Positions 3,075 to 63,829 are shown, counted from the first letter of the whole stretch. The stretch is DNA of 63,829 nucleotides, filler included, from Stramenopiles sp. TOSAG23-6 (GCA_900128565.1; 13 parts of 13 records of this genome joined end to end with filler, not necessarily neighbours in it); one strand, 5' to 3'. The notes: generated by a model from the sequence alone, not told the origin. Numbers and translations are program-made.

Positions 3075-6000
3075 TCAAATACAACTATCAATTGAATCTA
3101 ACGCAACCCTAATTGCAATCCATGGAGAAAGCATATTCCCTGTTTCAACAAACCATTCCATGAATTCCTCAAAAGTAATAAAACCATGCCTAGGATCAAT
3201 ATTGAGGGCTTTAAATATTTTCATTGCTCTCAAATGGACAGCATCATCAATTACAGCACACTCCTCTTGAGAAAAAAATCCTTCATTTGTATGTGTAAAT
3301 GAAACTAAAAGACAAAATGCACATCGAATAAACCGAGAAAATTGAGAATATGACATCTCTGTATGAGTACCAAAAAAATCACCCAGAGTAGTCCAACAGG
3401 TCATTACACCTTCCACAGAAGAATTTTGTCCCAATAAGATAAGGCCACAAGCAATTTCTTCAGCTAATACTGCACCAGTTCTACACTCATCATATGAACA
3501 AAATAGATTTGATAATGTTTGAGATAAGTATGCATGATCTCTTCCATTTAGCATATTAGATGGTACTAACGTATATATACATTCTTCAAAATCAGTATGA
3601 AGCAACCAATATTTATCAGTATTTGAATCATATTTTGAAAATCGCATCACTATTGAAGCAATGTCGACTAAGAATATTTCGCTAAACTTGATGTATTTAG
3701 CTGTTGCACGCATTGCTTCAGCATGAGTTTCTAAAATTTCTATACTTGCGTAATTGCCATTAATAAGACATAATTGTAATGATTCATTACTATTATTAAC
3801 TCCCAACTTGTATACGGAAGACATTCTAGGCTTTGGATTAGACTCTTCCCATTGAGTTATTATTTCCGACTGCTCCCACTTCTCAAGATTTAATAACTCC
3901 AACCAAGAAAGAACTCTAAAACCACCATTAGTATACCAAGCACCAAATTCTTCAAAACTTATCAAATTATCATAATTTGTGTCGCCCGTAGCAAACACTA
4001 ATCTAGTCGCACGACCGGCAGCAGAATCTACAATACGGGCAAGATCGGTACATATAAGGCTAGAACATTCTTCATTAAGTGCACATAGCATTGTCAAAAA
4101 ACTACGGAAATAAATATACATTTCTGACTGTGTCAAGTGGCCATCACCGTCATGATCTAATAAATCAAACGCATGAAGAAGTTTTCCACTTTTTTTACCC
4201 CCAGCTAACATTATTAAACCAATCGAAAATTCAATGCTTTTAATTTCATCCCAATGGATTGCAGCAAATGTATTATATACAAGTGACAAAGCATGAGTCA
4301 AAAACCTTTTCTCTTTGGGTGATAAAACATTGACATTGATTAATGATCGCATGCAACGCTTAAATGCAGATTTGTCCAACAAATTTTCATCACCAACTTC
4401 TGCATATACAACATCTGTTATATCGGTTGCAGTATAGTAGTGCAACTGTGAACTATCTTTAATTTTTTTCAGATTTGAAATATCATATTCTGTAAACTCC
4501 AAAATATCACCATCTTCGGTCAAAGTAAATGCAAGTGTTACTTCATTGCCCATCGTTGTACGATCTTTATTATCCATTGCTGTACGATCTTTATTATCCA
4601 TTGCTGTACGATCTTTATTATCCATTGTTGTAAGATCTTCATTATACATTGTTGTAAGATCTTCATCATCCATTGCAGTAAGATATTTATTATCCATTGC
4701 TGTCAGATATTTATTATCCATTGCTGTAAGATCTTCACTATCCGTTGCTGTAAGATCATGATTTTGCATATTTTGCATACTTTGTGCACTGAATGTAGAT
4801 CCGCTCGGAGCTTGGAATTCTCGATGGTAATCTACTATTGATTTCCTATCCTTTAGTACCGAATCCATTACTACATTCCACTTTTTTAAATCTAATAATT
4901 CTAACCAACGCAATTTCAGATATCCACCATCTGAATACCAAGAACCAAACTCTTCAAAAGTAATACAATGTGAATTTCGCCTCCTTGACTCAGAAAATAT
5001 TGTCATTACTATTTCCCATGTGGTAGTATAAATAACATTATCATCCATAGACGTTGTAATGCAAGTCTTGCTAACAGCAAAAAGTAGGAGTAAGAAAGAT
5101 TTAATAAACTTACAGAACACGAACATCTCAAGACTACCGGAATCATTATGATCCAAGACATCAAATGCAAAAGCAAGTTTTGCACTCTTGTTACCACCAG
5201 TTAGTACACAAAGACCAATTAACAACTCATTATAGGGGACAAACCCATCATATTCGCCAAGATTGTCTAATGTATCAAAAATGTTGGCAAAGAATCTCAA
5301 TACAATATTAGAATTTTCTTTCGAAATATTAATAGGTATAAAAACATTTTCAATATGTCTCATAAATACAGAACGTGTCACACAACTATCACTGTCTACT
5401 TCGATATTTAAGAGCATCATATTAGGTGACATGTCATTTAATCCACAAATGTCACAAACTGATGAGAGTGTAGCAAGTGTTGTGAAAAATATATTTTTTA
5501 ATAAAATAAATTGTTACCCACGAAATTTTCAATGAAAAATAAATAAATTTGAAATTAAAAAGTTTTACAACGTACAATATTCCCCGAAGAAAATTCCAAA
5601 TGGTCTGCATTTTCATTTAAAATAAACGAGAGAATAGTATCATCATTATGAAATTGATGTATATCTTGATTATAGACATTGTGTGATGATGTTTCAATTT
5701 CATTTGAATTATCCATAGAAAAAAGATTTGGCCACTTTGTCAAATCTAATAATTCTAACCAATTGAGCGATAAATATCCACCTTCATTATACCAATTACC
5801 AAACTGTGCAAACGAAATTAAATTATTTTCATCAAGTAAATGATATTCAAAAGCAATTTGAGTACCATTTTTAGCAACTGATTCAACAAGGCTAACAAAA
5901 TTTGTTTTGCTTATATTTGAGAAATCATTGCTCAAACTCATCATCATTGTCAAATAAGATTTCAACAAAAGATGTAATTTTAACTTTGATAAACCACGAC

Positions 6001-8030
6001 TCGCTTCAGCTACACTATTATTTGAAGATCTGAGATGTCTATATTCAGTATTTTCATTATACTCTAAATTTGACAGAAACTCAAATGCCGAGGCTAATTT
6101 GCTACTTTTTGAACCTTCAGCAAATAAGCTAAATCCAATGGCTAACTCTACAGGAATTACACTACCAAGACTCGATGTATTCGAAGAAATTGAATGGGAC
6201 ATATTCGGAATCACATCCGAACTTGAATTTGAATAAGCTGAAAATATATTTGAAAGTGTAATAAATACTGCAGAAATAGAAGTATCATTACTAGTTGATC
6301 TTATAGTAACGAAACCATCCATACATTNNNNNNNNNNNNNNNGAATCCTGACACATATTATGAGGATCAAATATCTTCAATAATTCACTTGGAAGACTTC
6401 TTCTTGACACAGCACTCAATAAAACTGAAAAGCGATGTATATCATTGAACGAAAACCTCATATTTTTTGTCTCACTTTGTGTATTCAATGCAACTTGAAA
6501 AACAACTTTATCTTTATCCAAATCAGAATGAGTTTCATTATTGACACTTTTACAATTTTGATATAGACTTGTCTGTTGTGACAACTTTTCTCTCGCCATT
6601 TGAGATGATTCATCTACAATTGGCCACTTACGAATATCTAATAATTCCAACCAAGATAGTTGTAAATAACCACGTACATTATACCAAGAAGCAAAATCAG
6701 AAAAAGATACTTTTCGATTTTCTGTAGTAGAATCTTCATTTTCTCCAAGTTCATCAAATACTAGTAAAGCACAAGCCCGTGATACTTCATCAATACCAGT
6801 AAAACTTGATTTTTGATTAGGTTCACCTTTCAAACAAAATAGCATTACAAGAATTGCACGAAAAAAACGAAAAAGAGTATTTTCATCCAAGCAGCTCTCC
6901 TCATCTGTAGCAGTATAACTAGTTTTATGTTTGTTCATACTAGTAGCAAATACATCAAATGCAATAGCTAATTTTTCACTCTTTGAATCAGTACAAAGTA
7001 GGATAAGTGCCACTGTTAAATCTTCAAGTTTCACCTTGCTATCTGGTGTTATTATATCTGCTATAACAAAATGCTCAAAAATACGTAATAAAGTTGATGA
7101 AATTGTTTTCTGGGCGGCAGTTGACATAACAAGCCCATTCGGCACTAATTTTCTTACAATTATTTTAAACATATCTATTGTTATATCTCCATCAGAAGAA
7201 CAACATTCAGATAACACACATATATTGTGAAAAATAATTTGAATTTTAAATTCGTTGGGTACAAAATTTCGTACGAAAACAAATTTCGAAATTAAAAATA
7301 AAATTAAAAAAAATAAAACATATGTTGAACTTCTTGAAGACTTGAATTCTGCATACATGACTTTTCAATAACACTACGAGCTCGATCAGCATCACTACTA
7401 CTAACTTCCAAGACATATCTTGAAAATTGTGATAAAACTGGTAAATGAATAGAAAAAATAGCTTGTTCTTTTGGAGACGGTGGCCATTTTTTTAGATCAA
7501 GTAGTTCAATCCATAGTGCTACAGACGATCCACCTTTACTATACCATTTCGCAAAAGAGTCAAATGATATTTGTTCATTGGTAGAAGTGAACATTGATTC
7601 CACTAAAGAGCCAACTGCAGTGTCATACAGCATTGACGTCAGAGAACCTTGTTTGTTTGAGTTAAGTACCATAATTCCACATAAAAGTGAGCGCAGAAAT
7701 TTATGCATTTCTAAGCGACTTAATGAGCCATTTCTTTGTGAGTCGAATAATTCAAAAACAAAGCTTAGTTTTGCACTTTTATCTTCATCACACAAAATAG
7801 TAGACGCAGATAAAAAATCTACAAGAGGAACTGAATCAGTTTGTTTGTCGTCTAAATGTGTAAAAATCGAGCATACTATATCCTTAATTAGTTCTTTACA
7901 ACTTTGGTTCTTGTCTTGAACATTCATTTTGTGTAAGAGACCAAAAATACACTCTTCGAGTTCTGTTTTCCGTATCCAACCATCCACAGCATTATCATAT
8001 TTTAAAACGATTTTTAATTTCTTCTCCGTC
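3075..8030 (-). CDS. large protein with repeated calcineurin-B/recoverin-like EF-hand modules; 5' partial, introns at 7220-7323 and 5475-5575, N gap at ~6328
   Basis: Five repeats of KSxKLxxAFxxxD...ISFxxFxxWYxxGG..xxWLELLDLxKW across four ORFs; intron removal joins them in frame. Confidence 0.85.
4550..4760 (-). repeat. 24-bp coding tandem repeat (TAMDNKDL-like x8-9)
   Basis: Visible in both DNA and translation. Confidence 0.85.
5475..5575 (-). other. non-canonical intron, GT...TT
   Basis: ATT|GTACGT...CACAACACTT|GCT; phase-0 join gives NI-ATL; degenerate core motif. Confidence 0.7.
7220..7323 (-). other. non-canonical intron, AT...AT
   Basis: C|ATATGT...TTCGTACGAAATTTTGTACCCAAC...CACAATATAT|GT; phase-1 join of two EF-hand ORFs. 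Confidence 0.7.
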
Positions 8031-8130
8031 NNNNNNNNNNNNNNNNNNNNNNNNNNNNNNNNNNNNNNNNNNNNTTAATTAATTAANNNNNNNNNNNNNN
8101 NNNNNNNNNNNNNNNNNNNNNNNNNNNNNN
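8031..8130. other. synthetic contig linker N-TTAATTAATTAA-N (also ~16160, 24289, 32401, 40510, 48618, 56722, 57910, 59095, 60279, 61463, 62647)
   Basis: The same ~100-nt spacer, with stops in all six frames, occurs 12 times. Confidence 0.97.
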
Positions 8131-8846
8131 AAGATCCTTTTTGACTGCTGGGGATTGTACGTTTTCATTTTGATTTGGATTTTTTTTTCGTACGAAATTT
8201 TGTACCTAATGAATTTTTCTTTGAAATATTTTTTCACAATACTTGGACTGTAAAAGTCTGGGCTGAAGATTTAAGTTCGCCGATTATAAGTTCCCCATTT
8301 TGCTCTTCTTCATTAACAGCAGCTTGTTGGTCTTCATCTCGAGCTGGTGTTTTTTTTTGTGGGCGGAAGGATGGGTATATCGATGTTTGGGATTTTTTCG
8401 AGAAACAAAAAGCACCTTCATTATCACATAAGCTTGGCAAAGCTTCTGTTACTTCACTGGGGTTGCAATCTTATAGTTTGGATTATGACGACCACAGTAT
8501 TCTTGCAGTTGGTGATTCGGCTGGTGATGCCCATATACTTCAGTTATGTCCAGCTTTATATGGAAATCAGCATAATGAAAAGGCATCTATTGCAAATGTG
8601 TTTGAAAGAGAATTTAATAGAGAAAAGAATCTTTTAGCAGCAGTGAAGAAAGGACATAGACGTCGAAAAGTCGCGCAGGAAATGGCTAAATTTCAAGAGG
8701 AGGAGAAGATTAAATTGAAAAATACGGAAGACGAACTGGATAAAAAATTAGCCGAAATAGATCAGGAATTTTTAGAAATGATGCGTAACCCAAACACTTC
8801 AGGAGCATTGAATCATATAGGTACAAAACCACTATCGACAGATTAA
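8131..8846 (+). CDS. DNAI2: axonemal dynein intermediate chain 2-like, C-terminal WD40 part (5' partial, one intron)
   Basis: LTAGD/WTVKVWAED...CWSSSRAGVFF..RKDGYIDVWD...EKASIANVFERE..REK resembles IC2/IC69. Confidence 0.75.
8157..8244 (+). other. non-canonical intron, GT...TT
   Basis: GAT T|GTACGT...core...CACAATACTT|GG ACT restores the conserved GDWT. Confidence 0.8.
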
Positions 8847-10254: not shown

Positions 10255-11526
10255 TTACCTTTGTCGAGACTCATCTTTCTCAGGCGGTTCTGGAATTGCT
10301 TTCACTGCTGTGACTAAGTCATCGACAGAAAATGTCATGAGTTCGTCTAATGTAGATTTTATGTCAAGGCGACGATCTAAATGAAATTTTGCAAGTTTGT
10401 GAATTCGTTTTGCCATGGCAGCGTTAAACGTTGAACGTTGTCTTTGACTGGTATATGTTGAAATAATCTTGGCAAGTTCTTCAGTCTTCTGATTACCCCA
10501 TTCCGAAGGAAGCTTNAATTTTTTCCTTTCAATTCGCATAACTGTAATTTTTGCGATTTCGAGACAAGAGTAATCTCTGAAACGAAAATGGCGTTGGACT
10601 CTCCTAAACATACCTTCATTTGATTGAAAAAATCGTTCCATATCTTTATCATAACCAGCAAATACCATGACAGGGTCTCCATCATTCATAACTGCCATCA
10701 ACTCTTCAATTGCTTCAGGTCCAAAATCAGATTTCGCACCAGGCTGTCCTAGTAGTCGATATGCTTCATCGACAAATAAAATTCCTTCTTTAGCTTGTTC
10801 AATAACTTTTTGCGTTTTTGGACCTGTTTGACCAACATAACCAGCAACAAGATCAGAACGCTGTACTTCTACTAATTGACCATGTTTCACAACACCAAGC
10901 GTTCTTAGGCATGATGCAACTAATCTTGCAACCATTGTTTTTCCTGTTCCTGGATTACCGTAGAATGCAAAGTGAGGCGCTTCTATCGGTCCAAGGTCCA
11001 TTCCAAGCTCACGTCTACGCTTATCCAGTAATAGTTCTTGGCGCATTGACAGTATTTCAGCTTTTATATCATCCAATCCTACTAGTTTTGCAAACTCTTC
11101 TTCCAGGTTAATTTTCTTTGCAGGTTTAATTTTAACTCTTTTTTCTTCTTTTTTTTTTGCTGCGTCCTCTTCCATTTTAGCAGTAGCTGTTCCACTTTCC
11201 TCCTCTCCAGCTATTGCTGACTTTAAATATTCAACACGATCCATATAACCAGACATACGACTTTTAATCAGATCCTTTTCATGCATATTTTTACACCATT
11301 TCATATATATCTACTTTTATTACATACTAGTTGAAGGATCACTTGTGAGTTTTACAATAATTGAGAAAAATAGAGTTAGGAAAAATGGTTGAATAATATA
11401 GCTTACCATTAAGTGATCTATACCTTTAAGGTATAAGTTTTTAGCTTTGTTTAACAAACCTTCATTATCAGCAGCGATTGCTTCTTTGATGAACTCAAGA
11501 CCGCGTGTTTTTACATTGTCTGCCAT
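10255..11526 (-). CDS. MIT domain + CbbX/CfxQ/SpoVK-type AAA+ ATPase; canonical intron 11311-11406
   Basis: GNPGTGKT, QRSDLVAGYVGQT, ILFVDEAY, FAGY; N-terminal AIAADNEG...A..LY..GI..LM MIT pattern. Confidence 0.85.
11311..11406 (-). other. canonical GT-AG intron
   Basis: ATG|GTAAGC...AAGTAG|ATA, phase 0; lacks the family core motif. Confidence 0.85.
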
Positions 11527-13711: not shown

Positions 13712-13990
13712 TACTTTAACAGGAGGAGACTTCTTCGTGAGAGCCCAAATTCATTCCAATCACATGAACAAATCGATCAAATTGATCAAAATTGTTGTTT
13801 GACGTTTGACCATTCGCAAAGTCGCTTTTCGTTTTTTCATTTTCCGACGGTTGTTTTTTTTTAAATAACGGACGTATCATATACCTAAGATTAGTTATAT
13901 CTGGATCTGGATACGTACGTATACGTAGATCGACGTAGATACTTCTAACCCAAACGTTTGTTGAATATCTGTAATAATATCAAAAGGACA

Positions 13991-16159
13991 ATGATACGCA
14001 GCAGAACACCTCATTTGGATAGAATTGGTATTGAGTCAATAAATCCAACACGGTCCCTTGGTATACCAGTTGCACAACGACGTCTAAAGGAAATTGTCAA
14101 AGATATTAGTGGACAAAGTGAAAGAGAGCCCAACACGGAAAAAAGAAAAGGGAAGCACAAAAACAACAAAGAAAAATATCATCCAGAAACTCTACTGTTA
14201 GCAAAGGTTCCACGAATATCCAAGTCGCAACATAGTGACATATCATTGTGCTTGTCAACTGTGCAGTTATCACGTGCACTACCTACTTGTCATTTTTGGA
14301 TGGTATTGACTTGTATATTGGTCAATGTAGCTTTGACAGTCCTCTGTGCTTGCTTGTTTCGATTCTTCACAGAATCCTTCACCGCAGCCTACCCATCAAC
14401 ATATCGTGGGCCGACAAATGTCACGGTGTTTGCAAATACGATGCTTTTCCTTGGTGGCTTAGGTATTATTTCTCATTGTACAATGGAGTCTCTTTTGAGT
14501 ACTGCTCGACATCGGTTCACGTATATCGCTNCCTCATTGGTAACAGAAGATATGCGCGAGGATGATGACATTGAAGCAATGGACATCAGCGTTACTGCGA
14601 ACGCTTTATTTCATCTTATTCCAGTAGCCTTACATTCGGTGCTTGTATCTATAATATGCACGGGTTTTATGTTTTATCTAAGCTGGAGACATGCCCTGGT
14701 CGAATGTGGCACAATTATTCTAATGGTTATTATATTGGTGTTGTATTCAACATTTATTGACAAGTATAACTCTGAACGAAATTCAATACATGATAATTCA
14801 AATGATCTAGTTAATATTGAACATGAGAAAGCGTTAATCGAACTGAAAAAAACTAATTTACGAAAACGTAAATCTAGTCTTAAATCTAGCCGTTCTAAAA
14901 TTAATACTGGAAATGAATCATACGATGAAAATTCAAAAGAATCAGAAGAATCAGAAGAAGCGGAAGAAAGAGAAGAAGTTAAAGAAAGGAAAATAATGGC
15001 AATCAAAAACTATGCGCTCCAAGAAGTGACGGCATCATGGCATATTGCATATACACTTGTAGTGCTGTTTATTTTACTCGGTTCAGTGTATGCATTTATT
15101 TTTCTAAGCATCAGTATTGCGGAAGAACAAGACAGTGAACCTAACGTTCTTGTCAAGATTCTTTTACTCTTTTTTACATTGTCACATTTAAAAACTGCAA
15201 ATTTTTCAATTCTTCAAATTAGCTCAAATTCTGATTGTATCTCGCGAATAAATGATATACTTTGTAATTCAGACTTGAATTCGCTATACCGGCATTCAAA
15301 ATTCAATCTTTCTAGTGACTTAAAAAACGCAATGCATAAAAGGGTTAGTAAACCTAAAGTGGATCGTTCCGTAATCTACTCTATACATGTAGTATTTGTA
15401 GGGTTCATGATTATTTTTATCAATAACTACCGTAGAGGTCTTCGAGTTTGTTCTCCTGAAGTAACAGTGGATTGCTCAACAAAATATAACAATACAGAAC
15501 AATACTGCGGACGTGTGACAATACAACAAGAATTTGACTTTTCATCAGCGTCATGTTTACCAGAAAGTAAAGACGTTTTATTTGAAAAATGCTATTCTAT
15601 ATGTAAGACATATCCAATTGAAAAATTTGATATCACCTTGAACGCTACACCACTTGGTGATGATATGATGTCACAAAACCTTCAACCAACATTTTCAATA
15701 TCAATACCAAAAGAAGAAGGAAACAGACGTAGTCTTCGACGGATACTCCAGAATAAACAAAGGGGGAACCAAGTAACATATAACAGTGGTAACAGTCCAA
15801 CGCCAACAAACAATCCAGCACCAGCACCAACACCAAAAACACCAACACCAACACCGCCGCAGGAAACAACACAAACAACTCCAGCTAATGCTGGTGTCGT
15901 TATAAATGGGGATGGCACTAAAATCTATATGAATTCAGAATCAACAAACGCTCAAACAAACGCTCAAACAAACGCTCAAACAAACGCTCAAACAAATGCT
16001 CCAACAAACGCTCCAACACCAACACCAACAAAAACACCAACACCAACACCAACAAAACCACCAACAAAAGCTCCAACAAACGCTCCAACACCAACAAAAC
16101 CACCAACAAAAGCTCCAACAAAAGCTCCAACACCAGCACCAACACCAGCACCAACAAAA
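13991..16159 (+). CDS. multi-pass membrane protein with Cys motif and Pro/Thr-rich repeats (3' partial)
   Basis: Several hydrophobic segments, TNAQ/TKAPTPAP repeats; similar to the N-terminal half of 42513-48290. Confidence 0.75.
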
Positions 16160-16259
16160 NNNNNNNNNNNNNNNNNNNNNNNNNNNNNNNNNNNNNNNNN
16201 NNNTTAATTAATTAANNNNNNNNNNNNNNNNNNNNNNNNNNNNNNNNNNNNNNNNNNNN

Positions 16260-16975
16260 AAGATCCTTTTTGACTGCTGGGGATTGTACGTTTTCATTTT
16301 GATTTGGATTTTTTTTTCGTACGAAATTTTGTACCTAATGAATTTTTCTTTGAAATATTTTTTCACAATACTTGGACTGTAAAAGTCTGGGCTGAAGATT
16401 TAAGTTCGCCGATTATAAGTTCCCCATTTTGCTCTTCTTCATTAACAGCAGCTTGTTGGTCTTCATCTCGAGCTGGTGTTTTTTTTTGTGGGCGGAAGGA
16501 TGGGTATATCGATGTTTGGGATTTTTTCGAGAAACAAAAAGCACCTTCATTATCACATAAGCTTGGCAAAGCTTCTGTTACTTCACTGGGGTTGCAATCT
16601 TATAGTTTGGATTATGACGACCACAGTATTCTTGCAGTTGGTGATTCGGCTGGTGATGCCCATATACTTCAGTTATGTCCAGCTTTATATGGAAATCAGC
16701 ATAATGAAAAGGCATCTATTGCAAATGTGTTTGAAAGAGAATTTAATAGAGAAAAGAATCTTTTAGCAGCAGTGAAGAAAGGACATAGACGTCGAAAAGT
16801 CGCGCAGGAAATGGCTAAATTTCAAGAGGAGGAGAAGATTAAATTGAAAAATACGGAAGACGAACTGGATAAAAAATTAGCCGAAATAGATCAGGAATTT
16901 TTAGAAATGATGCGTAACCCAAACACTTCAGGAGCATTGAATCATATAGGTACAAAACCACTATCGACAGATTAA
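16260..16975 (+). CDS. DNAI2: DNAI2-like fragment (duplicate; intron 16286-16373)
   Basis: Same as 8131-8846. Confidence 0.7.
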
Positions 16976-24388: not shown

Positions 24389-24585
24389 CCTTTTGTATTG
24401 TAAAAAAAATTTTTTTTTTTTTTTTTTTTTTTTGTTAGGTACAATATTTACTATGAAAAAAAAATGTAAAAAAAAAATCAAAATTTTTTTTTTTTGGTTT
24501 AGGTACAAAATATCGTACGAAAAAAAAAATTAAAAAAATAAAAATAAAAAAAACGAAAATTAAGTGTAGGGTAAAAAAAACGTAC
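24389..24585 (-). other. family intron (3' end poorly resolved)
   Basis: A|GTACGTTTT...TTCGTACGATATTTTGTACCTAA; core appears twice. Confidence 0.6.
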
Positions 24586-24900: not shown

Positions 24901-24934
<34 letters not shown>

Positions 24935-32500: not shown

Positions 32501-32554
32501 TATAAAAATTTTGTACCTAACGATTTTTTTTTGAAATATTTTTCCAAAATACAT
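32501..32554 (+). other. 3' half of family intron
   Basis: TTTTGTACCTAAC...AAATATTTTTCCAAAATACAT; the ORF-track ATG at 32553 straddles this junction. Confidence 0.75.
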
Positions 32555-42122: not shown

Positions 42123-42512
42123 AAGTTGATAACAGATAAATATATACCCTAACCCTAAAAGAGCGCTCTTTGTATGAAATTTGTATTTTTAATTTTATTT
42201 TTTTAGAAGATCAGTTTCGAAACTGAAAAAAAGTAGTTTCGTTAACTACCATTGTAAATTATGAAATACAAACTTAATTTGTGTATCTACTACGTAAATG
42301 GTACGGAATTCTATAATAATCAAAATTTCATAAATTGCGCGTGTCCCTTTTTTCCAAAAATGTCCTTCCTTTTTTGTAACGACCAGGTCAAATAGTTTTG
42401 TACACGTTTACATGTGTGTATTATCTGTCAAGTGTCAACGGTTATCCAGAAGATACCCTTTGATTGAATTTATAAACCGCATATTGATTAAGATTGATAA
42501 AGCTTTTGAGAA

Positions 42513-50348: not shown

Positions 50349-50470
50349 GGTATAAAAAGTGTTTATTTTCTATATAAAAAAAGTGTAATTACCCTACTAA
50401 ACCAAAAAAAAAAGACTTTTTCTTTTTTTTCTGTATAAAAAAGTGTAATTACCCTAACCCTAAAAAAGAC

Positions 50471-51538
50471 TTATTTGTTTTTCTTTTCTACTTCTTTTTT
50501 AATTGCATCTTCCACTTTTTTACATAAAAGATTAGGAACAAGAACAAAATCCGTATTTCCGTATGAATGTATTGTGAAAAATATTTTTTTGCTTTTACTA
50601 AAAAAATTGTTAGGTACAAAATTTCGTATGAAAAATAAATAAATTTGAAATTCATAATGAAAACGTACATACTTTAGTATCGGTTGTTTTTCAGTTATAC
50701 CCATTACAATAAGATCGCCATTTTTACGAGGGATTTTCACAGTACCAACCGAAAAATCCAAAAGGAGATCATCACCATGTAGAGCGGTATCATCCCTGTC
50801 TTGTACGTCACAAGATTTCAGTGTTGAGGAAAATGAAAATTCAGCCGCACCTCTTTCAGTATATGTCGAATATTCTGATATTGGTGAAAATCCTTTTCGT
50901 GATGCAATGAGTTGATATCCAACTGGTCTAAACTCAATGCGGTTGACGGAAGTTGATTCTGGAAGATTTATTAAGAAATCAAGTGCACGAGTAACAGCTG
51001 CAATATCTGGACTCTTCCCTGTAAGAGCAGAAAGTTCATCAACAGATGCCTTTGGCTTTGAACCTTGAAATTTTTCAATGATTCGGTTAATTTTTTTCTT
51101 CATACTATTCAAAGGTTTTTCTACAAATGTGCCTTCAATAGTAGAACTCAAAACGCTGAAGACGCGCCACTTGAAAATACTACTCAGGCTATCGTCTTTG
51201 GCAGTTCCGTCGTTCCCAGTGGCAAGATTAACTACCCCCTGTACGTGGGCAGCATCTCCAGAAAAACTCTTGAAAAGATCAGCAAGAACACGCTCGTTAC
51301 GGTCTTGCATTATGCGATGACATGAAGCAGACTGAAAGTCATCCATCGTAGACATGTCTTCACAAAGGGTGCCCAAGCAACCATTATCACCGCCGCCATC
51401 ACAGTAGCCNTAGAGNTTTGACTTGTCCCGCAAAGCGCGTAGTAACTTTTTTTTTGTCAAAGCTGGTGGTGGATCAAATGAAAGACCCGTAATCAAAGCA
51501 ATAACAAAGACGGTCAAGTAGGTAACAGAGTTCCACAT
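50471..51538 (-). CDS. hypothetical secreted protein; in-frame intron 50567-50668
   Basis: Signal peptide MWNSVTYLTVFVIALITG. Confidence 0.65.
   Translation of the reverse strand: MWNSVTYLTVFVIALITGLSFDPPPALTKKKLLRALRDKSXLXGYCDGGGDNGCLGTLCEDMSTMDDFQSASCHRIMQDRNERVLADLFKSFSGDAAHVQGVVNLATGNDGTAKDDSLSSIFKWRVFSVLSSTIEGTFVEKPLNSMKKKINRIIEKFQGSKPKASVDELSALTGKSPDIAAVTRALDFLINLPESTSVNRIEFRPVGYQLIASRKGFSPISEYSTYTERGAAEFSFSSTLKSCDVQDRDDTALHGDDLLLDFSVGTVKIPRKNGDLIVMGITEKQPILKYVRFHYEFQIYLFFIRNFVPNNFFSKSKKIFFTIHSYGNTDFVLVPNLLCKKVEDAIKKEVEKKNK
50567..50668 (-). other. non-canonical intron, GT...AT (102 nt)
   Basis: TAT|GTACGT...core...CACAATACAT|TCA. Confidence 0.8.
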
Positions 51539-51813
51539 TGTACTAAATGATGTTAAGTTCGTTAAGTTCCAATGCGCTAAAGTATATTTTCTCTCTCTCT
51601 CTCTCTCTCTCTCTCGAGTCAGGTCTCTTTTTGGTCCCGAAGAGTCAAAAAATTCCAAAAATGATTGGAATTAATTCAAAAAATTTGATTTCGTGTTCGC
51701 AGGAGCGAAAAGTTCTCTCTCTCTAGCGACACAAGTTCAAAGTTCAACAACACCAGAATCAAAAGGGGGATATCAAAATTGAATAAATATTACGCTAGCC
51801 TCTGACGCGTACA

Positions 51814-54800
51814 ATGNTTATTGTGTCAATATCACAGAAGTTTCCGAAATTAGTATTCTTCACCCTTCTATATTTTTTACCGAAATTCTCTGAAGCGCTG
51901 TCGATAGATAATTTGAAGGACGATTCGATAGATAATTTTAAGGACGATTCAAATTTACTTGCGACAAACGCTGAAGGCAAAACCTCTTTGGAAGTGTCTC
52001 TACAAAATTTGCTTTTAGCTGGGCAAACATCATTGCCTCTGGATGGTGACTTTTGGTTCACTAAATATCGTAGTGCGGAAAATGGTAACAATAAAAAATT
52101 CAAAAAATGTGAGATATATTCCGAAGTTGTAGTGAAACTAAAAAAAAACAACCAAAACAACGGTGCCTCATGGGTGGCAGGCACCATACTAAAAATAAGT
52201 TCAGATGGATCTATTTTAACAATTAGCTATCCTGGGGGACTTATTAATGCACATATTGATCGTGTGAGGCCATGCTTTCATGCTTTACTACATGGCGATA
52301 ACTCCTCATACAAATCAGAGACCGAACNAAATTCTATAAAAATTCCTCAAAGTTGTTTTTTATCCCAGTGTAGAAAGAAGAAGAAGCTTTGCTATAGATA
52401 TAAATGGTCTGAGACTTTATTCGATAATATAGAACATCATACAACTGAAAAACATATCAATTCATGTAAAGAAGTTTTCTCGAGTGGTACGTCAAAACCT
52501 TCTTTTAATAATATTCCCATTGTCTATCCTCTCAGTCGTAATTGGAATCCAAATTCATTGTTGCTTTGGGGTAAAAGTTGTGAATGTATGTTATTAATTT
52601 CTACTGAACGAGCAAATGAACATTTTCATTGTTATTGGGATGAAAAGTCGTCTGATGAAGTGTATAAAGAATGGGAACATTGTCGGAGACCATTGAATTC
52701 TACCATCGCGAAAACAATACAAAAAAAAACAAATATTACTAGCCAAAGTCAACGAATCAAATCCTTAAGTAATTCAATAATTGATTTAAAAAACATCTAC
52801 AAGGTCAACAATAATAGCACCATATTTGATGAAAATGATAAAAAAATATTTCAAAATCTCTCCCATATGAAAGTGAATATCACATTGGAACAGCAAAAAA
52901 ACGAATTTCTAAATATGAAATCAACAGTTGCAGAAACAATTCGCATTTTTTTAACACCTCAAATTACAAAAGCTCAAAATAAAACACAAACAGAAAATCT
53001 TGAAACAATACACAAATGGAGTTGTAGTGATTCAAATATTACAGAAAAGGAAAATTGTGTAAGTTTTTGCTCTGGGCCAAAAAAAAATGATACAAAAAAA
53101 GTATACGATGACTGCTTTAGTTCTTGCTCAGACGAAAGTATCTATACTACTGATGATTGTATCAAAGCAAAACCGAAGTGGGAGCTTCATAAATGGTACA
53201 ATCAGACATGGGATGACAAAATTAGTCAATGTGTGACTGTTGGAAGTCCAATTACATGGAATGAGAACTTGGATATAAAAGATGGTGAAATACCTACAAA
53301 AGATAAAAAAATAGAAAGATGTAGTCAAGGTGCAAATGTAATTGTAAAATATAATGATACTCTTGGCAATACGCAACGTATTTCTGCAAAGGTTGTACAG
53401 ATTTCGGATTCTTCAGATTTAACAAGGAAAAACACGACACTTCACGTGTCGTATTCTGATAAAGTTACTTATTCACGTGATGATACAGATGTTAAATTAC
53501 CTGAAATTATTCCAATTAGTGATGCTATTCTTTGTACAAATCAATCAAAAGAATATAGTACTGAAGCACAGTGTAAAAAAATGAAAAACAAGTGCCTCTC
53601 TCTACGAGAATTTGGAGATGAATGCCGTGCAGAAAAAGGTTGTATCTTTACATCTCGTCGCAAACCAAACTGTCAGTCTTTAAGTGATCCTTCAATATGT
53701 TCAAATGTTGGTAAAAATGGTGGTACAATAAATAGTGAGACTTGTACAGAAGAAATGCATTGTAATTTTATCTCAGCCAAAGGCAACGAAAAAGGGTTTT
53801 GTACCCAAATTGAAGGTCTCTGTGACATTATTGGTCCCATTGAGAGAGATATTTGCGAAGGTTTAACAGCAATAGAGCATTGCAAATACATTCCTGAGAG
53901 GAAATCAGAATGTGTACTACGCGAAAATTATTGTGAGGAAAATATTATTGAATCAAATTGTATCAATAGTACGACTCAAAAATGTGATGACATTGAAAGA
54001 GCCTTGCAGAAAGAAATGATAAAATTAGATAATTTGTCTGAGCATAACTGCTTTCCATTTTGTAATCACCGTAGTCGAAAGACAAAGCGAGCATGTTTAT
54101 ATGATAAAAGTAGCAGTGGAGAATGCACAAATGGAAAAGATATCAATCAAGAAGAATGTGAAGCATTGGGACCTCATATAATAAAACGAACTTGGATCGA
54201 TCGATATCCAATATACTCTGAATTTAATACAACAAGCGTTCCAAAAGAATTGACATTATCTTTACAGTGGCTAAGTGAATCATTGTATACATATATAAAG
54301 GGAATATTGATGGTTGACGAAAGAATTGCTGTAGAAGAAGAGAAGCACGAAGCTTGGTGTTTACATTCAGAAAATAGCTTAAGAGAAGCACAAGANGGTC
54401 GAAGCAGTAATTCATATGCCTCTGATATTCAAATTGATATAATGAAAAGTCTTCGTACTTTAATCGATTCAATGTGCAATAATTGGTCAATAGATAGAAA
54501 ATTTCAAGAGTTTTCTCGACTCTCATTAATTCAGATTATTACGGAACTTTTACTACTCATTAATCGTGGGCAGAATGATCGAATGATACTGACGTCACTC
54601 CCAGTTGTAGCTTCACAAATCGAAGAATCACATGCAAATGCAAATTTTGTTCCAATTTCGGTATGCTCAACTAAAACTAATACTAGAAGTTCATTTGATG
54701 CCTTTACTGAAAAGTTTAATGTAGCTGCTGAAAATATCCGAGATATAAACAATATCATAATAGAAAGCGATGGATCATTTCAGCCAACGCGAAATATTAT

Positions 54801-56634
54801 TGTCGCGCAAACTATTAAAAATTTACCTGATTTAGTAGATGCACTACATGGACGTAAAAGTGAATCAGTATGGGCAAATTGTACCTGGGTGTCNGNATCG
54901 CTTTTACACAAAAATCAACGGGATAAAATTTTCCTTCAAGGTAGTCAGAGTAATGAATTAAATCCAATAGAAACCCGTGAGTTGCTTAAACAAATCTCGT
55001 TTTCAATGATTGGAGCAATACATTCAAAATCAAATGACGCAGATATTTCTAGACGATTTAGATTTAGATCTAAACGATTGAAGAATAAACGTCTTAAAAC
55101 TCAACTTGAGCCAGGAGATGAACAATTATTCGAAAAACTCAAAGGCGCAAATGCAGCATTAGCAGCCTTCGATGGCACAGAATTCCCACCCGAATCTTNC
55201 ATTCCGTCTGTTTTTTTTAAGGATAATAGCATTCTTAGTGAAGGTTCTTCTTTATGTGGAAAGTTTGGTTTGCCATGTCCACCAAAATCTTGTGGTTTCC
55301 ATGGTTCAATGAATGCGGGGAAATGTGAATGTGATTACGGGTATATTGGCGATGATTGTACTGCGTACGTTTTCATGATGAATTTCAAATTATTTTTTTT
55401 CATACAAAATTTTGTACCTAACNTATTTTTTGACTAAAAAAATATTTTTCACAATATATGTGTGTGTCTACTCATTCTAAACAAAGGATTATTGAAGAAG
55501 TTACTCTTCAAAAAAAAGATGTGTGTCTTGCATGTGAGCCTTACATAACAGCTATGATGAGCGAATATTCAACAACGACTGTTGAAGAAAAGCAACCACA
55601 GACCATTGCACAATTTGTGGATATTTATAGGGACATTGGATTACTCCACTCTGTGGAAATTCAAATGAAAGGAGACCAACCTCCCCCACATAATATGCTA
55701 GTGAACATGACAGTCAAACAAAATGGTGGTCTATTGGACATGAATTACCAGGATTTTACAAATAAGTACACTTTAAATATGACAGACTCTTTCAATTTGC
55801 TATTTGATGTTAATGAAGGGCGTCATGACGATTGGTATAGGTTTAGTACTAAAGATGTTAGATGTATTCACTCTGGAGCTCAAATAATGTTTACTCTAGC
55901 AAATGTTGGAAATCTAGAGTGGAAAATGAACAGAGCCGCAAATAATTTGACTGGTATTGTCTTGTTTGTTTTCATCATGAATTTTTTATCTACATTTTTT
56001 TTACTATGAAAATTTTGTACCTAACAATTTTTTTAAACCAAAAAAAATATTTCTTCGACAATACATACAACGGATGAATAAAACACAATCAAATAAAAAT
56101 TGTAAAGTGGTAGAAAGTATAGCAAAAATGAAAGGGGCTTCAGAAAATTCAGATTATAAAGTTTGGACGGATACGTGTAGTAGATTCGATACCAGGATCA
56201 CTTGCAATGAAAAGAGTGCCGACCATGGGAAACCCGGTGGTCATTGCAAGTATGTTTTTCAAAATTGAATTAAAAAAAAGTCATACCAAATTTCGTATCT
56301 AACAAAAACATGAATGTAACATATTTTTTCATAACACATATGGACTGAAAATGTAACTCCATCTCCATTTTTCTGGAAATTATACGGAGGACGCCCGCAA
56401 AGTGACACGAAAGATATACGCTCAATACCGAAAAAGTTTGGACAAGTTGACGTTATTTCTGCAACGTAAATAATTTTCACTACAACTAACTACTACAAAA
56501 TCTAAATTTATTTTTTTTCTCAATCTTTTATCATAATTGTGATATCACACACACACAGTTGTCCTGAGAGTCACAAATTTCCATTCATGAAAGGCAAAAA
56601 GTGTTGCAAAACTGATAGATATAAGCTTCCAAAT
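51814..56634 (+). CDS. large Cys-rich secreted/surface protein with an EGF-like motif (3' partial, multi-exon)
   Basis: Signal peptide; CGFHG...GKCECDYGYIGDDC; exons join in frame across four introns. Confidence 0.75.
55365..55459 (+). other. non-canonical intron, GT...AT (95 nt)
   Basis: GC|GTACGT...core...CACAATATAT|G, phase 2. Confidence 0.75.
55964..56066 (+). other. non-canonical intron, GT...AT (103 nt)
   Basis: TT|GTTTGT...TTTTGTACCTAAC...ACAATACAT|A, phase 2. Confidence 0.75.
56250..56339 (+). other. non-canonical intron, GT...AT (90 nt)
   Basis: AA|GTATGT...TTTCGTATCTAAC...ATAACACAT|A gives HCK-W. Confidence 0.75.
56466..56558 (+). other. canonical GT-AG intron
   Basis: AC|GTAAAT...ACACAG|T gives T-CPESHKFP..GKKCC. 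Confidence 0.7.
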
Positions 56635-56721
56635 GTATGTTTTATTTTTTTTCAATTTCGAATTTCTTTTTTTCGTACGAAATTTTGTACCTAACGATTT
56701 TTTTTTGAAATATTTTTCCAA
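56635..56721 (+). other. family intron truncated by contig end
   Basis: AAT|GTATGT...TTCGTACGAAATTTTGTACCTAAC... Confidence 0.8.
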
Positions 56722-56821: not shown

Positions 56822-57909
56822 TGATGTTGTTTGGGACAAACCTGAAAATTATAAGATGGCAGCTGATGATCAAACGATGCACTCTGTTATTCTGATCCAG
56901 ACAATGTGGAGAAGTAAAAAGGCAAGAAATGCCGTTGAGAATGTTCGAGAAGCCAGTTTTGCCCAGGATTTGAAAGCAGGTTATGACGAAGCATCTATAC
57001 AACCGGAGCCAACAGAGGCAGTCCAAAAAGGAATAAGTACTTTACTTGATAGTTCTTCTAAAGATCTTGGGTCATTGCTTAAAGCAGGGATGATCGAAGC
57101 CAAGGTTAGATCTGCAAATTATGAAAAGTCACTTATTGAGGATACTCCGTGGGTAGAGGTGTATGATCCAGATGCACGTGAGTACTATTATTGGAATACG
57201 GAAACTCAGGATGTAATCTGGGACAAACCCGAGAATTATAAAATGGCAGCTGATGATGAAATGATGTCAGCCGTCATTCGAATTCAATGTGGCGTTCGTG
57301 CAATGTTGGCGAACAAGAAAATACGCAATAAACTCAGAATGATATTTGAAGGCAAAATGAAAGAAGTACCACCAGAAGTGCAACACCGACTGGATATCGC
57401 TTGGACTGAATATGAGACAATGTCAAGTCTTGCTGATCGATCGTGGGCAGAACAATTCGATAAAGAACATCAGCGTCATTATTATTACTGTATTGAGACT
57501 GGGGATGTTGTATGGGAGAAACCAGATGATTATTTAATGCATGCAGAATACTCAGAAATGTTAGCTGCCGTGCGTATTCAATTTAAATATCGAACTCGAA
57601 TAGCAAATAGAGCTGCACAAGAATTACTTGAAATTGAAGAATCAGGAGGAGACGTAGAAGGGTACATTAGACAAAGAGCTGAAGCACAAGCTGACAAAAT
57701 TCGTGTTCAATCCGCTGCCCTTGCAGGGTCAGCATTAGACCAAGCTCAAATGGCAATGGCTCATATGAATGAGCAGGAAGAATTAATGAAGAAAGAACTT
57801 GCTGCATTAAAGCATAAGAAGGAAGCACAACGTATAGCAGCACGCGAGAAAGAAAAACGCGAAAAAGAAAAATTAGATAAAGCTGCGGTTAGAAAACGTC
57901 TAAAAAAAG
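56822..57909 (+). CDS. WW-domain / IQ-motif repeat protein (partial)
   Basis: WVEVYD...YYYWNTET..V.WDKP alternating with IQ..(W/V/Y)R motifs. Confidence 0.85.
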
Positions 57910-58009: not shown

Positions 58010-58094
58010 AAAAAAAACTTAAATTTGTTAGGTACAAAATTTCGTACGAAAAATAAATTCGATTATTTTTGTAAAAAAATAAAATAAAACATAC
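58010..58094 (-). other. family intron truncated by contig end
   Basis: AAT|GTATGT...core. Confidence 0.8.
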
Positions 58095-59020
58095 ATTCGC
58101 TGCAACAATTAAATCGCCTGCTTGAATATCCCGACGGGCTGCTGCTGAACTAGGAGCACAATTTTCAACAACAATTCGGCCTGATCGTACATAATTTGTG
58201 AGAAAATATTTAAAAAAAAAAAAAAAATGTTAGGTACAAATTTTTTTTACGAAAAAAAACCAAAAAAAAAAAAAAAAAAAATTCAAAAAAAAAATTGAAA
58301 TGTAAAATGTAAAATAAGGATTTAAAACACGAAATACGTACAGCTAGATGAAGACCTAATGGGCCGACGCCAAACTCAGCCTCTTTGAATGTAATTTCTC
58401 TACCATCTGTAATTCGTATTTTTAAAGTCTTTAAAATAACTGATAATGTTCTTACCCATGTGTTATAAAAATATATTTCAAAAAAAAATTTTTTTTAGTA
58501 AAAATTTGTTAGGGTAGGGTTAAAAATATATTTCAAAAAAAAAAATTTTTTAGTAAAAATTTGTTAGGTATGAAACTTTTTTATAACATTAGGGTTAGGG
58601 TTAGGGATAAAAACGTACAAGCATCTCGAAGCTGAATAGATACTGTTTGAAATTGATAACAGGCAAAATTTGTTGTCAATTTAAATCGTCGATCAACATC
58701 ACTTTCGTGACTATTTCGTGTTTTTTCTATATTGTGCGATGTGTTGACACGTGGCAATTCAAGAGTCATTGGGCGTAAATCAACAATGTCACAAGGAGGT
58801 AATCCCCATATTTTGTAAAACAATATTCTTATTAGGGTTAGGGTTATAAATACGTCAATAAAATTTCTATGAAAAAAAATCCATGAAAAAACAACTCTAA
58901 AACTCTTAGGTACAATATTTCGTATGAAAAAAAATTCTAAGAAAAAAAACCTACATGTAGATTCTTTCTCATAGATAAATAACGTGCTCCCATGTAGAGA
59001 TATCCAACGTCTCCTCCAGG
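58095..59020 (-). CDS. PH + PDZ domain protein fragment (four exons: 59020-58955, 58807-58619, 58457-58342, 58190-58095)
   Basis: Spliced: WRRRWISLHGSTLFIY...RDAWV (PH); GPLGLHL...IVV...SAAA...IQAGDLIVAAN (PDZ). Confidence 0.8.
58191..58341 (-). other. non-canonical intron, GT...AT
   Basis: GCT|GTACGT...GTACCTAAC...CACAAATTAT|GTA, phase 0. Confidence 0.75.
58458..58618 (-). other. non-canonical intron, GT...AT, with telomeric repeats and an internal duplication
   Basis: T|GTACGT...ATAACACAT|GG restores the PH-domain Trp. Confidence 0.8.
58808..58954 (-). other. non-canonical intron, GT...AT (147 nt, in frame)
   Basis: AT|GTAGGT...TTCATACGAAATATTGTACCTAA...ACAAAATAT|GG. Confidence 0.7.
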
Positions 59021-59094
59021 ATGTCTTTTGAAACAATATTTCAAAAAAAAAACTTAAATTCGTTAGGTACAAAATTTCGTATGAAAAATAAATT
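59021..59094 (-). other. 3' half of family intron
   Basis: core...CAAAAGACAT|CC TGG. Confidence 0.7.
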
Positions 59095-59194: not shown

Positions 59195-59245
59195 CAAAAT
59201 TTCGTACGAAAAATAAATTCGAAATTGAAAAAAAATAAAACATAC
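59195..59245 (-). other. 5' half of family intron
   Basis: AT|GTATGT...TTCGTACGAAATTTTG. Confidence 0.8.
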
Positions 59246-60278: not shown

Positions 60279-60466
60279 NNNNNNNNNNNNNNNNNNNNNN
60301 NNNNNNNNNNNNNNNNNNNNNNTTAATTAATTAANNNNNNNNNNNNNNNNNNNNNNNNNNNNNNNNNNNNNNNNNNNNTCTTCATTTTGAGTCGTATAAG
60401 AGGAGGAGGTGGTGTTTTAGATTAGTTTTATATATAGTAGGAAAGACTTATGATGAATTTCAATAC

Positions 60467-60725
60467 ATGTATTTTGTAAAAATATTTCAAAAAAAAAATT
60501 ATAAAAAATTTGTTAGGTACAAAATTTACTATAAAAAAAAAATTTTAAAAAAATAAAATGAAAATAAAAAAGAGGAGGTGGTGTTTTAGATTAGTTTTAT
60601 ATATAGTAGGAAAGAGTTAAGATGAATTTCAATTGAATTTTTCAACGACCGAGGATATATATTTTTGAAAATTTGTTAGGTACAACATTTCGTACGAAAA
60701 AAAAAATTAAAGGTAATTTTATAAA
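60467..60725 (-). other. two family-intron-like elements in apparently non-coding DNA
   Basis: Core motif at ~60512-60530 and ~60674-60698; 3' ends AAAATACAT and AAAATATATAT; 5' ends unclear. Confidence 0.55.
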
Positions 60726-61562: not shown

Positions 61563-61677
61563 TTGTAGAAAAATAAAAATAAAAAAAAAAAAATGAAAAA
61601 ATATTTCAAAAAAATTAAAAAATATCTTAGGTACAAAATTTCGTATGAAAAAAATATTTGGTATGAAAAAAACGTAC
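61563..61677 (-). other. family intron truncated by contig end
   Basis: GTT|GTACGT...TTCATACGAAATTTTGTACCTAA. Confidence 0.8.
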
Positions 61678-62646: not shown

Positions 62647-62746
62647 NNNNNNNNNNNNNNNNNNNNNNNNNNNNNNNNNNNNNNNNNNNNTTAATTAATT
62701 AANNNNNNNNNNNNNNNNNNNNNNNNNNNNNNNNNNNNNNNNNNNN

Positions 62747-63340
62747 GTGTGATCCTAATCGAAGGGGGCCTAAAAACATGTGGAGAAGCTCATGATTCGC
62801 AATGTTAAATTGATGAGTAATTGGAGTTATTAAAGATTTCTCTACCATAACGGCGACAATTCGACCTAAATCTGCCAAATCGCAACCATCTTTATCCAAC
62901 ATCCTTTCCCAACTTGAAAGAAAATTTTGAGAATATATAGGGTTAGGGTTGCTTTCGGATACGGATGATTCAAAAGTTTCGCCAATAGCGTTACGAGCCT
63001 CACTCTCGGCGGTGTTATACGGAGAATCTTGATGATGAACTTTCAAAGGAGGTAAGCCCAATTCTAAAGCTAAGCATAACTTGTAAAGTATATTTTTAGA
63101 AAAAAAAGTGTTAGGTACAAAATTTTGTATGTACAGAAAAATAAATTCAAAATTGAAATGAAAACGTACATGATGATTTTGAAGTATCATTTTTTTCTTT
63201 ACACATATACTCAATAAAAGATGCAGTACCACTCATAAAACATCTATTTAATTTTGATTTAGCTATTCTTTTTGCTATTTTATTAATTACTATTCTCTCA
63301 ACATTTTCTTTTTCAAAACTTTTTCCATCAAACATTTCAT
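62747..63340 (-). CDS. hypothetical protein fragment; intron 63076-63169
   Basis: Two ORFs joined in frame by a family intron. Confidence 0.55.
63076..63169 (-). other. non-canonical intron, GT...AT (94 nt)
   Basis: AT|GTACGT...TTTTGTACCTAAC...ACAAGTTAT|GC, phase 1. Confidence 0.7.
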
Positions 63341-63726
63341 CAAAGTTTTGATTTTTTTTTTATGTTTTTCTAATGATAATAATAATGAATGTGTGGACTC
63401 AATCGTATTAGATTTAATAACATGTTTTGTATTTTTTGTATTTTTTGTATTTTTTTTTTTTTTTCAATTTAAAANNNNNNNNNNNNNNNNNNNNNNNNNN
63501 NNNNNNNNNNNNNNNNNNNNNNNNNNNNNNNNNNNNNNNNNNNNNNNNNNNNNNNNNGATTTGCACAAATCGTTACAGAAATTTGTACTTAAAGGATCAG
63601 ATGAACTCAAACGTAATATCGAACGAGACGCAGAAGATCGAATGTCAGCATTGAATTTCGATTGAACTTCTGGAGATCGACCTCTACCATATTCAACATT
63701 TGACATTGATAGTGTCGATAAAATAC

Positions 63727-63829
63727 ATAATTTGTGAAAATATTTTTTTTTTTTTTTTCTTAAGTACAAAATTTTATACAAAAAAAAAATATTTGATAAA
63801 AAAAAAAAAAAATATTTTTTTTTTCTTAA
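63727..63829 (-). other. 3' part of family intron preceding an exon at 63558-63726
   Basis: TTTTGTACTTAAG...AAATATTTTCACAAATTAT|GT. Confidence 0.6.

Follow-up and report, generated by a model that had tools for sequence, protein, structure and literature searches.

The 63.8-kb stretch of DNA analysed here (63,829 nucleotides (nt), referred to throughout as the window) contains an AT-rich repeated element of ~90-160 nt with ~24 occurrences in ~56 kb of unique sequence. The reading that we hold to be probable is that the copies are spliceosomal introns from one short, non-autonomous, introner-like family, which brings with it its own 5' site, branch box and 3' block and has YAT as its acceptor. 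An earlier note on this DNA had taken the inserts to be introns with a non-AG acceptor, and that view is now backed by RNA for one copy, by protein homology for a second, and by the reading frame for 14.

For the copy at 56250-56339 there is direct evidence of removal from RNA, with the cuts exactly at GT..AT. A search of public sequencing runs with the contig at 48718-56721 found parts of it in seawater metagenomes and in poly(A) metatranscriptomes, and on the interval 54897-56721 we aligned the RNA runs X6, X7 and X9, which come from two studies, and the independent DNA run X3. The joint 56249->56340, which skips 90 nt running from GT to AT, is found in X6, X7 and X9 in one contig each, the shorter flank being 85, 30 and 37 letters long and no letter fitting both sides. 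It had been allowed earlier that both junctions might lie 2 nt farther upstream, and this unambiguous joint excludes that register for 56250-56339. In another RNA contig, X7 record 18, the 5' junction of the same copy is still unspliced.

The question that has to be put to this joint is whether splicing is needed at all, as the joined form might be an insert-free allele or paralogue, a product of DNA excision of the kind that removes internal eliminated sequences in ciliates, or an artefact of assembly. What leaves room for such an explanation is that the RNA/DNA comparison used assembled contigs and not raw reads, that there is a single DNA run with a depth of ~5, and that the best structure match of the dynein fragment described below is an axoneme entry that we take to be from a ciliate. 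However, DNA run X3 has 0 joined contigs, and its record 3 is continuous over 56005-56421 with the insert kept. The X3 DNA contig and the RNA contigs share four variant bases, at 56112, 56138, 56351 and 56356, and hence come from the same population. A repeat-driven misjoin is unlikely, given that the joint comes back in all three RNA runs and no letters are shared at it, DNA elimination has no need of the one-sided orientation that is found in 21 of 22 copies, and the long open reading frames (ORFs) in the window stay open with the standard code. We consider it extremely improbable that the joined form is anything but a splicing product.

The copies of the family in the window are as follows, each with the basis on which it is placed.

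5475-5575, minus strand: complete copy, GT..TT, 101 nt; the preceding exon ends TT; frame open, and the first AG (+16) shifts the frame
7220-7323, minus strand: complete copy, AT..AT, 104 nt, the sole non-GT start; placed by ends and frame
8157-8244, plus strand: complete copy, GT..TT, 88 nt, in an outer-arm dynein intermediate chain gene; placed by frame and gap-free homology
16286-16373: identical twin of 8157-8244, in a duplicated contig
24389-24585, minus strand: composite copy with two branch boxes, its 5' GT at 24585 and its 3' end running into the contig end
24776-25010, minus strand: long degenerate copy rich in T runs, with a GTAAAT start and a block ending ..ATACAT; ends placed by motif
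31160-31255, plus strand: complete copy, GT..AT, 96 nt; the preceding exon ends AT; placed by ends and frame
32501-32554, plus strand: 3' half, truncated at the contig start, AT end; profile match
37491-37590, plus strand: complete copy, GT..AT, 100 nt; placed by ends and frame
49462-49553, plus strand: complete copy, GT..AT, 92 nt; junction ambiguous, exon and intron ends sharing 6 nt
50567-50668, minus strand: complete copy, GT..AT, 102 nt; two AGs skipped between the branch box and the 3' end
55365-55459, plus strand: complete copy, GT..AT, 95 nt; placed by ends and frame; no bridging RNA contig
55964-56066, plus strand: complete copy, GT..AT, 103 nt; placed by ends and frame; no bridging RNA contig
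56250-56339, plus strand: complete copy, GT..AT, 90 nt; excision proven by RNA, joint 56249->56340
56635-56721, plus strand: 5' part, truncated at the contig end, GT start after exon AT; profile match
58010-58094, minus strand: 5' part, truncated at the contig start, GT start after exon AT; profile match
58191-58341, minus strand: complete copy, GT..AT, 151 nt; placed by ends and frame
58458-58618, minus strand: complete copy, GT..AT, 161 nt, with an internal duplication and CCCTAA repeats; placed by ends and frame
58808-58954, minus strand: complete copy, GT..AT, 147 nt, with CCCTAA repeats inside; placed by ends and frame
59021-59094, minus strand: 3' part, truncated at the contig end, AT end; profile match
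59195-59245, minus strand: 5' half, truncated at the contig start; profile match
60467-60544, minus strand: 3' two-thirds, AT end, no clear host ORF; profile match
60664-60714, minus strand: central fragment, no clear host ORF; profile match
61563-61677, minus strand: 5' part, truncated at the contig start, GT start after exon TT; profile match
63076-63169, minus strand: complete copy, GT..AT, 94 nt; placed by ends and frame
63727-63829, minus strand: 3' part, diverged, truncated at the window end, AT end; ends placed by motif

When up to 2 mismatches are allowed, the 12-nt core of the element has 39 matches, compared with 6.85 expected and with 14 in the highest of 100 shuffles. An nhmmer profile made from the 14 complete copies, used with a cut-off of E ≤ 0.01, gives 26 matches in the window (~24 of them unique), including one in the duplicated contig and one weak 33-nt match internal to an ORF. 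Orientation is sense to the flanking ORF in 21 of the 22 copies that can be scored, which means those with a flanking ORF of at least 90 codons in the same contig, and the sole exception is the 33-nt match, which is antisense within an ORF and has E = 0.0015. The complete copies are 88-161 nt long with pairwise identities of 49-87%. The earlier count of about 25 related, sense-oriented inserts is thus borne out, as are the positions, lengths, starts and ends that had been given for the 14 complete copies. As a local feature, a ~60-nt direct duplication flanks the copy at 60467-60544 (60400-60650, minus strand), in a stretch with no clear ORF, and may be a local duplication that took in the element.

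The copy number has to be seen together with the make-up of the window, which is not a single molecule but several short contigs, seven of ~8 kb and several of ~1.08 kb, chained by spacers that are built as 44 N + TTAATTAATTAA + 44 N and stand at 8031-8130, at 16160-16259 and at 11 more places. The contig at 16260-24288 is a letter-for-letter duplicate of the contig at 8131-16159, so that one element copy is scored twice in raw lists. Many contigs end within the repeat, and the truncation of ~10 profile matches by contig ends indicates that the assembler broke at the repeat. GC content is ~29-41%. Isolated single Ns are scattered in the window and suggest a low-coverage or amplified draft.

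In the DNA metagenome, the bins over the element core have a summed contig depth of 5,519-182,519 versus 3-8 in bins of unique exon, a contrast that fits a very high copy number of the element and agrees with ~1 copy per 2 kb, although summed contig depth is not a copy number and other organisms may contribute to it. A strict 23-nt element pattern has 0 matches in the metagenome contig collection. A 17-nt pattern picks out 64 loci there, all of them chance by profile, with 3 marginal at E ≤ 0.001; one locus that was added from these contigs at E ≤ 0.01 (L019) was judged by eye to be unrelated to the family. The viral contig collection has 6 pattern loci, by chance only, the prokaryote genome contigs have 0 element copies, and protein searches for transcripts of the same species gave only 2, 2 and 0 distant matches.

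The ends of the copies were fixed by family similarity, independently of the frame, and the chance of an open frame is ~1/3. Excision at the family ends gives a frame that is open for at least 31 codons, as far as it was followed, in 14/14 complete copies. Splicing to the first AG downstream is in frame and open in 4/14 (7220, 8157, 55365 and 63076) and produces a frameshift or a stop in 10/14, and the 4 are about what chance would give if AG is irrelevant. The assertions of the earlier note on this score are borne out: in our analysis excision keeps the frame, the next AG brings a frameshift or stop at 31160, 37491, 58191 and 58458 and a stop at the junction at 49462, and at 8157 the next AG is in frame but loses 4 residues including a conserved W.

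The copy at 8157-8244 is the one for which protein homology can be brought to bear on the junction. The exon on its 3' side is similar to the outer-arm dynein intermediate chains of solved axoneme structures, and the best structure alignment begins at the conserved G-D-W. The dynein homologues P0003 and P0004 align gap-free over the junction when GT..TT is excised, with 139 and 104 bits, whereas with the AG at +12 there is a 4-residue gap, the conserved W is lost, and the scores are 126 and 93 bits. The gap-free alignment is obtained only with GT..TT, which agrees with the restoration of the dynein G-D-W-T that had been reported. For other host genes, the Pfam scan gave a weak PH match only (E = 0.0066), and no TMTC family was found among the window ORFs, so that the earlier identifications of a PH-domain W and of TMTC were not confirmed.

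Of the 14 complete copies, 13 start with GT and 1 with AT, while 12 end in AT, 2 in TT and 0 in AG. The order of features from the 5' end is GTAYGT, a T-rich run, a short palindrome (TTTCGTACGAAA in many copies), the box TTTGTACCTAAC, which includes the CTAAC branch consensus, then a T-rich stretch, and finally a conserved 3' block of ~20 nt that ends CA(A/C)AAYAYAT. The GTAYGT 5' site is present in most copies, in two sub-types starting GTATGT and GTACGT, and a CTAAC-type box is present in 12/14. A box was recognised in 13 copies: in 11 of them the presumed branch A is located 34-43 nt before the last intron base, and in 10 the stretch from the box to the 3' end is free of AG. The tails are T-rich, with a pyrimidine content of 36-77% in the 22 nt preceding the final 8 nt. 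The final triplet is CAT or TAT in 12/14 and CTT in 2/14, and two long copies have internal duplications. Separately from the box, CCCTAAC in family introns also gives CTAAC branch-like motifs.

A U2-type intron has a GTRNGT-like 5' site, a YTRAY branch site upstream of a pyrimidine-rich tract, and a terminal AG. The family has the 5' site, the branch site and the T-rich tract, but not the 3' AG (0/14). U12-type introns are recognised by a 5' box, RTATCCTT, and by a branch box, TCCTTAAC, close to the 3' end. That the copies belong to this class, removed by the minor spliceosome and tolerant of unusual 3' ends, is suggested by the branch box, which is long and highly conserved as it is in U12-type introns. 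However, the 5' end is GTAYGTTTT and not the RTATCCTT box, the branch box is TACCTAAC, and the distance of the branch A from the 3' end given above is beyond the spacing of U12-type introns. There is no U11 or U12 RNA in the window, which is far too small for this to count. Membership in the U12 class is improbable.

Another way to account for the ends would be removal without a spliceosome, by pairing of the intron ends, as happens in nonconventional introns of euglenids and hemistasiid diplonemids. Those introns likewise have non-AG ends and short direct repeats where exon and intron meet, as excerpts of PMC12621601 and PMC11282704 describe them, and single-cell genomes of eupelagonemid diplonemids are reported, in later papers that cite the work, to have many non-canonical introns. 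Some copies could also form a pairing of 5-6 bp in which 'exon AT + GTAT' meets the terminal 'ATACAT'. Folding of 6 copies with 10-nt flanks gave z scores of -1.37 to +0.85 versus shuffles, so that none of the 6 is extra stable, no stable end-joining structure appears, and a euglenid-like end-pairing mechanism is not favoured. Furthermore, the family has a textbook U1/U6 match at the 5' end and the conserved CTAAC box, which are absent from nonconventional introns, and its strict sense orientation fits strand-specific signals. We find end pairing very improbable.

The junctions contain a further regularity, which is that the last dinucleotide of the upstream exon is the same as the last dinucleotide of the intron in 8/14 copies, six being AT/AT and two TT/TT, the latter being both of the TT-enders. 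With a chance of ~0.10 per copy, as taken from the background dinucleotide frequencies, the binomial tail is ~1e-5 by hand calculation. The triplet upstream of the intron is YAY in 5/14, TAT at 37491 and 50567 and CAT at 49462, 58808 and 63076. That the 2-nt junction repeat is a 2-bp target-site duplication is suggestive, not conclusive; if it is, excision of the element plus one repeat would leave no scar.

For fungal introner-like elements, reverse splicing followed by reverse transcription has been proposed. Spread by that route, with the same splicing and with the upstream AT as a preferred insertion context, would agree with the exact coincidence of element and intron boundaries, with the negligible inverted terminal repeats, and with the finding that, among 19 upstream exons that can be scored, 13 end in AT or TT regardless of the intron end. 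It agrees less well with both TT-enders following exon TT, which a duplication explains and a fixed context does not, although the count is small. We regard this route as rather unlikely.

Returning to the copies as introner-like spliceosomal introns, the proposed mechanism is that each copy would supply a yeast-like 5' splice site (GTAYGT) at its first base and, farther along, the CTAAC branch box, the T-rich stretch and the ~20-nt conserved 3' block ending in YAT. The transcript would be cleaved at GT and ligated right after the terminal AT (rarely TT), and the 3' block together with the 2-bp junction repeat would define the YAT acceptor. The major (U2-type) spliceosome would act, with an acceptor step that tolerates U for the final G and keeps the A at -2, and older non-repeat introns of the genome would keep AG. 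We infer, beyond the individual copies, that all of them are spliced alike, that their origin is in a transposon, which type of spliceosome removes them and how AT is chosen.

Introns of the ordinary kind have two candidates in the window.

28149-28353, minus strand: non-family intron candidate, GTAAGT..CAG, 205 nt, in the gene for ATP synthase subunit d; frame by hand
56466-56558, plus strand: non-family intron candidate, GTAAAT..CAG, 93 nt; frame by hand

The first of these sits just after the start of its gene, and the second shares its gene with three family copies. Judged by sequence, both fit GT-AG with the frame kept and look canonical, from which it follows that the AT rule is tied to the repeat family and not to all splicing. 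The ratio of the family to other recognisable introns in the window is ~24 to 2, a figure inflated by the repeat-broken contigs. Hence, the AG-independent rule proposed in the earlier note is upheld for the family copies, with their non-AG acceptor, but not for the whole organism, as two GT-AG candidates remain, and 56 kb of contigs broken at the repeat are too little to tell whether it covers 'most of its introns'.

Several findings weigh against the interpretation as introner-derived introns with a YAT acceptor. The RNA test covered 3 of the 14 complete copies, the other 11 being outside the aligned stretch, and one of the 3 is bridged, while 55365 and 55964 have no bridging contig. Three of the 13 copies in which the branch box is recognised have AGs downstream of it, ahead of the proposed end, which splicing would have to pass over. 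The junction dinucleotide repeat is missing in 6/14 copies, and the occurrence of both TT-enders after exon TT is marginal when taken alone (6/91, ~0.07 by hand). Under the duplication model, the perfect terminal inverted match is 0-4 nt only, no transposase domain is found among the 28 window ORFs scanned, and neither an autonomous partner element nor an empty site was found, for which reasons DNA transposition is not established. Finally, there are no small nuclear RNA (snRNA) or splicing-factor genes within the window, so the type of spliceosome is read from the motifs.

A tool to ask what kind of organism this might be is the dynein fragment, which scores 117 bits against 7k58/6zyw and 88 bits against 8glv/7kzm, which we take to be Tetrahymena and Chlamydomonas entries, respectively, and 76 bits against human DNAI2. 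Because the fragment is closer to the protist axoneme entries than to human DNAI2, an animal host, and hence a tunicate, appears unlikely, and the host is probably a protist. The tunicate Fritillaria as the source organism was downgraded on these dynein scores. A small flagellate, heterotrophic or algal, is our guess. Deoxyhypusine hydroxylase in a protein atlas did not discriminate among possible hosts, and matching GrpE, signal peptidase, ATP synthase subunit d and the TPR protein to solved structures gave no information on the host.

To anticipate where the family may belong, we examine the systems in which unusual intron ends or introners have been described, using excerpts of the papers cited. 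Closest in behaviour are the Fritillariidae. AT is the commonest 3' terminus in Fritillaria, at 44% in F. pellucida and 34% in F. borealis, YAY forms the last three intron bases and often also precedes the 5' site, a T-rich tract is retained, and rarer GT-AG introns coexist (PMC13326754). A U2-type spliceosome removes all of the classes, with duplicated U2AF subunits and altered snRNA methylation, and the main classes in F. borealis start with AG, as AG/AC and AG/AT (PMC13326754). An origin of Fritillaria introns from transposons like introners or miniature inverted-repeat transposable elements (MITEs) has been discussed (PMC13326754, PMC11282704). Shared with the window are the AT ends, the YAY end (here CAT or TAT in 12/14) and the presence of GT-AG introns alongside. 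In contrast, the introns here start with GT in 13/14, within a full GTAYGT, they belong to one dominant family with a conserved branch box, and their host is probably not an animal. The statement in the earlier note that a rule of this sort is not described was too strong, as AT acceptors have been published for Fritillaria (PMC13326754).

Introners are short non-autonomous repeats that occur in thousands of copies in unrelated genes and carry splice signals; their target-site duplication supplies or abuts a splice site, and one family can dominate intron gain (PMC11282704, PMC12130899). The present family resembles them in its many similar copies in unrelated genes, in its sense orientation and in the splice signals that it carries. 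The introners of Micromonas pusilla and Aureococcus anophagefferens start with GT or GC and finish with AG, and those of Micromonas have 3-nt duplications and clear inverted repeats (PMC11282704), whereas here we have an AT/TT acceptor, a 2-nt direct repeat and inverted repeats of at most 4 nt. A 2025 introner survey counted AG and AC as 3' sites, and a family whose sites were unfamiliar was kept only when RNA sequencing supported it (PMC12130899). Going by these rules as excerpted, a GT..AT family in an unannotated draft could have been missed.

In Amoebophrya (Syndiniales), a marine protist, over 60% of introns are non-canonical and the minor spliceosome is absent; some of the introns are repeated elements with direct repeats of 3-5 nt over the junctions, but there is no preferred terminal dinucleotide, and the exons are joined by way of hairpins made from inverted repeats of 8-20 nt (PMC7789003). 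The copies here have uniform GT..AT ends and no significant hairpin. Nonconventional introns of euglenids and hemistasiids have no U1 complementarity or conserved ends and have strong end pairing, and the hemistasiid ends are G/C-rich (PMC12621601). Likeness to these is found in the non-GT-AG borders, in the junction repeats and in the MITE origin suspected for theirs, and unlike them the family is AT-rich, with canonical 5' and branch signals and no end-joining structure. The non-canonical introns of marine eupelagonemid single-cell genomes were predicted without RNA data, according to the papers citing them. Mild arguments against such a lineage are that the 5' and branch signals are canonical and that Pfam detects the ATP synthase subunit d, the latter being compatible with many lineages.

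In the literature searched, which took in few subscription journals and no supplements or figures, no GT-AT introner family turned up for any protist. What may have happened, and we advance it as a tentative reading, is that a marine protist unrelated to tunicates independently evolved a routine YAT acceptor for one hugely amplified introner family, whose 5' and branch signals stayed perfect, while its older introns keep AG.

As to the rest of the window, the element interrupts, among other host genes, those of the dynein intermediate chain, of an EF-hand protein and of a TPR protein, and further genes are those for GrpE, signal peptidase, ATP synthase subunit d, deoxyhypusine hydroxylase and an AAA+ ATPase. 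The latter (10258-11310, minus strand) is of the CbbX/SpoVK/EccA type and matches CbbX structures at 1.6e-42; as its scores are under all curated NCBIfam cut-offs, it is evidence neither for a red-type Rubisco activase nor for a plastid. No Rfam families or tRNAs were found in the window. The ORF at 56822-57909 (plus strand) has WW and IQ motifs and a segment of ~120 residues that is repeated at least three times and holds a stretch like 'pen-y-k-m-a-a-d-d', which was noticed in the DNA. For five long ORFs (529-1926 codons), Pfam gave no family at E ≤ 0.001, which suggests a lineage thinly covered by databases:

13949-16207: long ORF without a Pfam family
32535-34580: long ORF without a Pfam family
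34823-36487: long ORF without a Pfam family
42510-48290: long ORF without a Pfam family
51799-55364: long ORF without a Pfam family, cysteine-rich with EGF-like spacing

A telomere-like sequence, (TTAGGG)2, is found 8 times versus 0 expected, several of the arrays being intergenic or just past stop codons and two being within family introns. The arrays, (TTAGGG)2-3, are at these positions:

28542: telomere-like array
34322: telomere-like array
34581: telomere-like array
42147: telomere-like array
50452: telomere-like array
58589-58606: telomere-like array
58832: telomere-like array

At 50375-50465, in a short gap between convergent genes, GTGTAATTACCCTA(A/C) occurs twice, ~60 nt apart, and the pair may be a terminator or a polyadenylation-region signal. 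Other AT-rich islands that were examined in the window are intergenic.

Few signals in eukaryotic genes are as constant as the terminal AG of introns, which gene finders, introner surveys and spliced aligners take for granted. A genome with a family spliced as GT..AT at ~1 copy per 2 kb would therefore be badly mis-annotated by standard tools. What is known already, from the excerpts on Fritillaria, is that transposon-derived introns can have AT acceptors, and what appears to be new is a GT..AT family in a host that is probably not an animal. If the YAT reading is true, the family would be a second natural example, and a cleaner one, of a major-type spliceosome ligating exons independently of AG. 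It would offer a simple natural substrate for the choice of the second-step site, as its 5' site and branch site are normal and so is the A at -2, and since only the last intron base deviates, the requirement for a terminal G would be directly testable. The link between transposon invasion and a relaxed splice rule that is seen in Fritillaria, Amoebophrya and the euglenozoans would then extend to another lineage.

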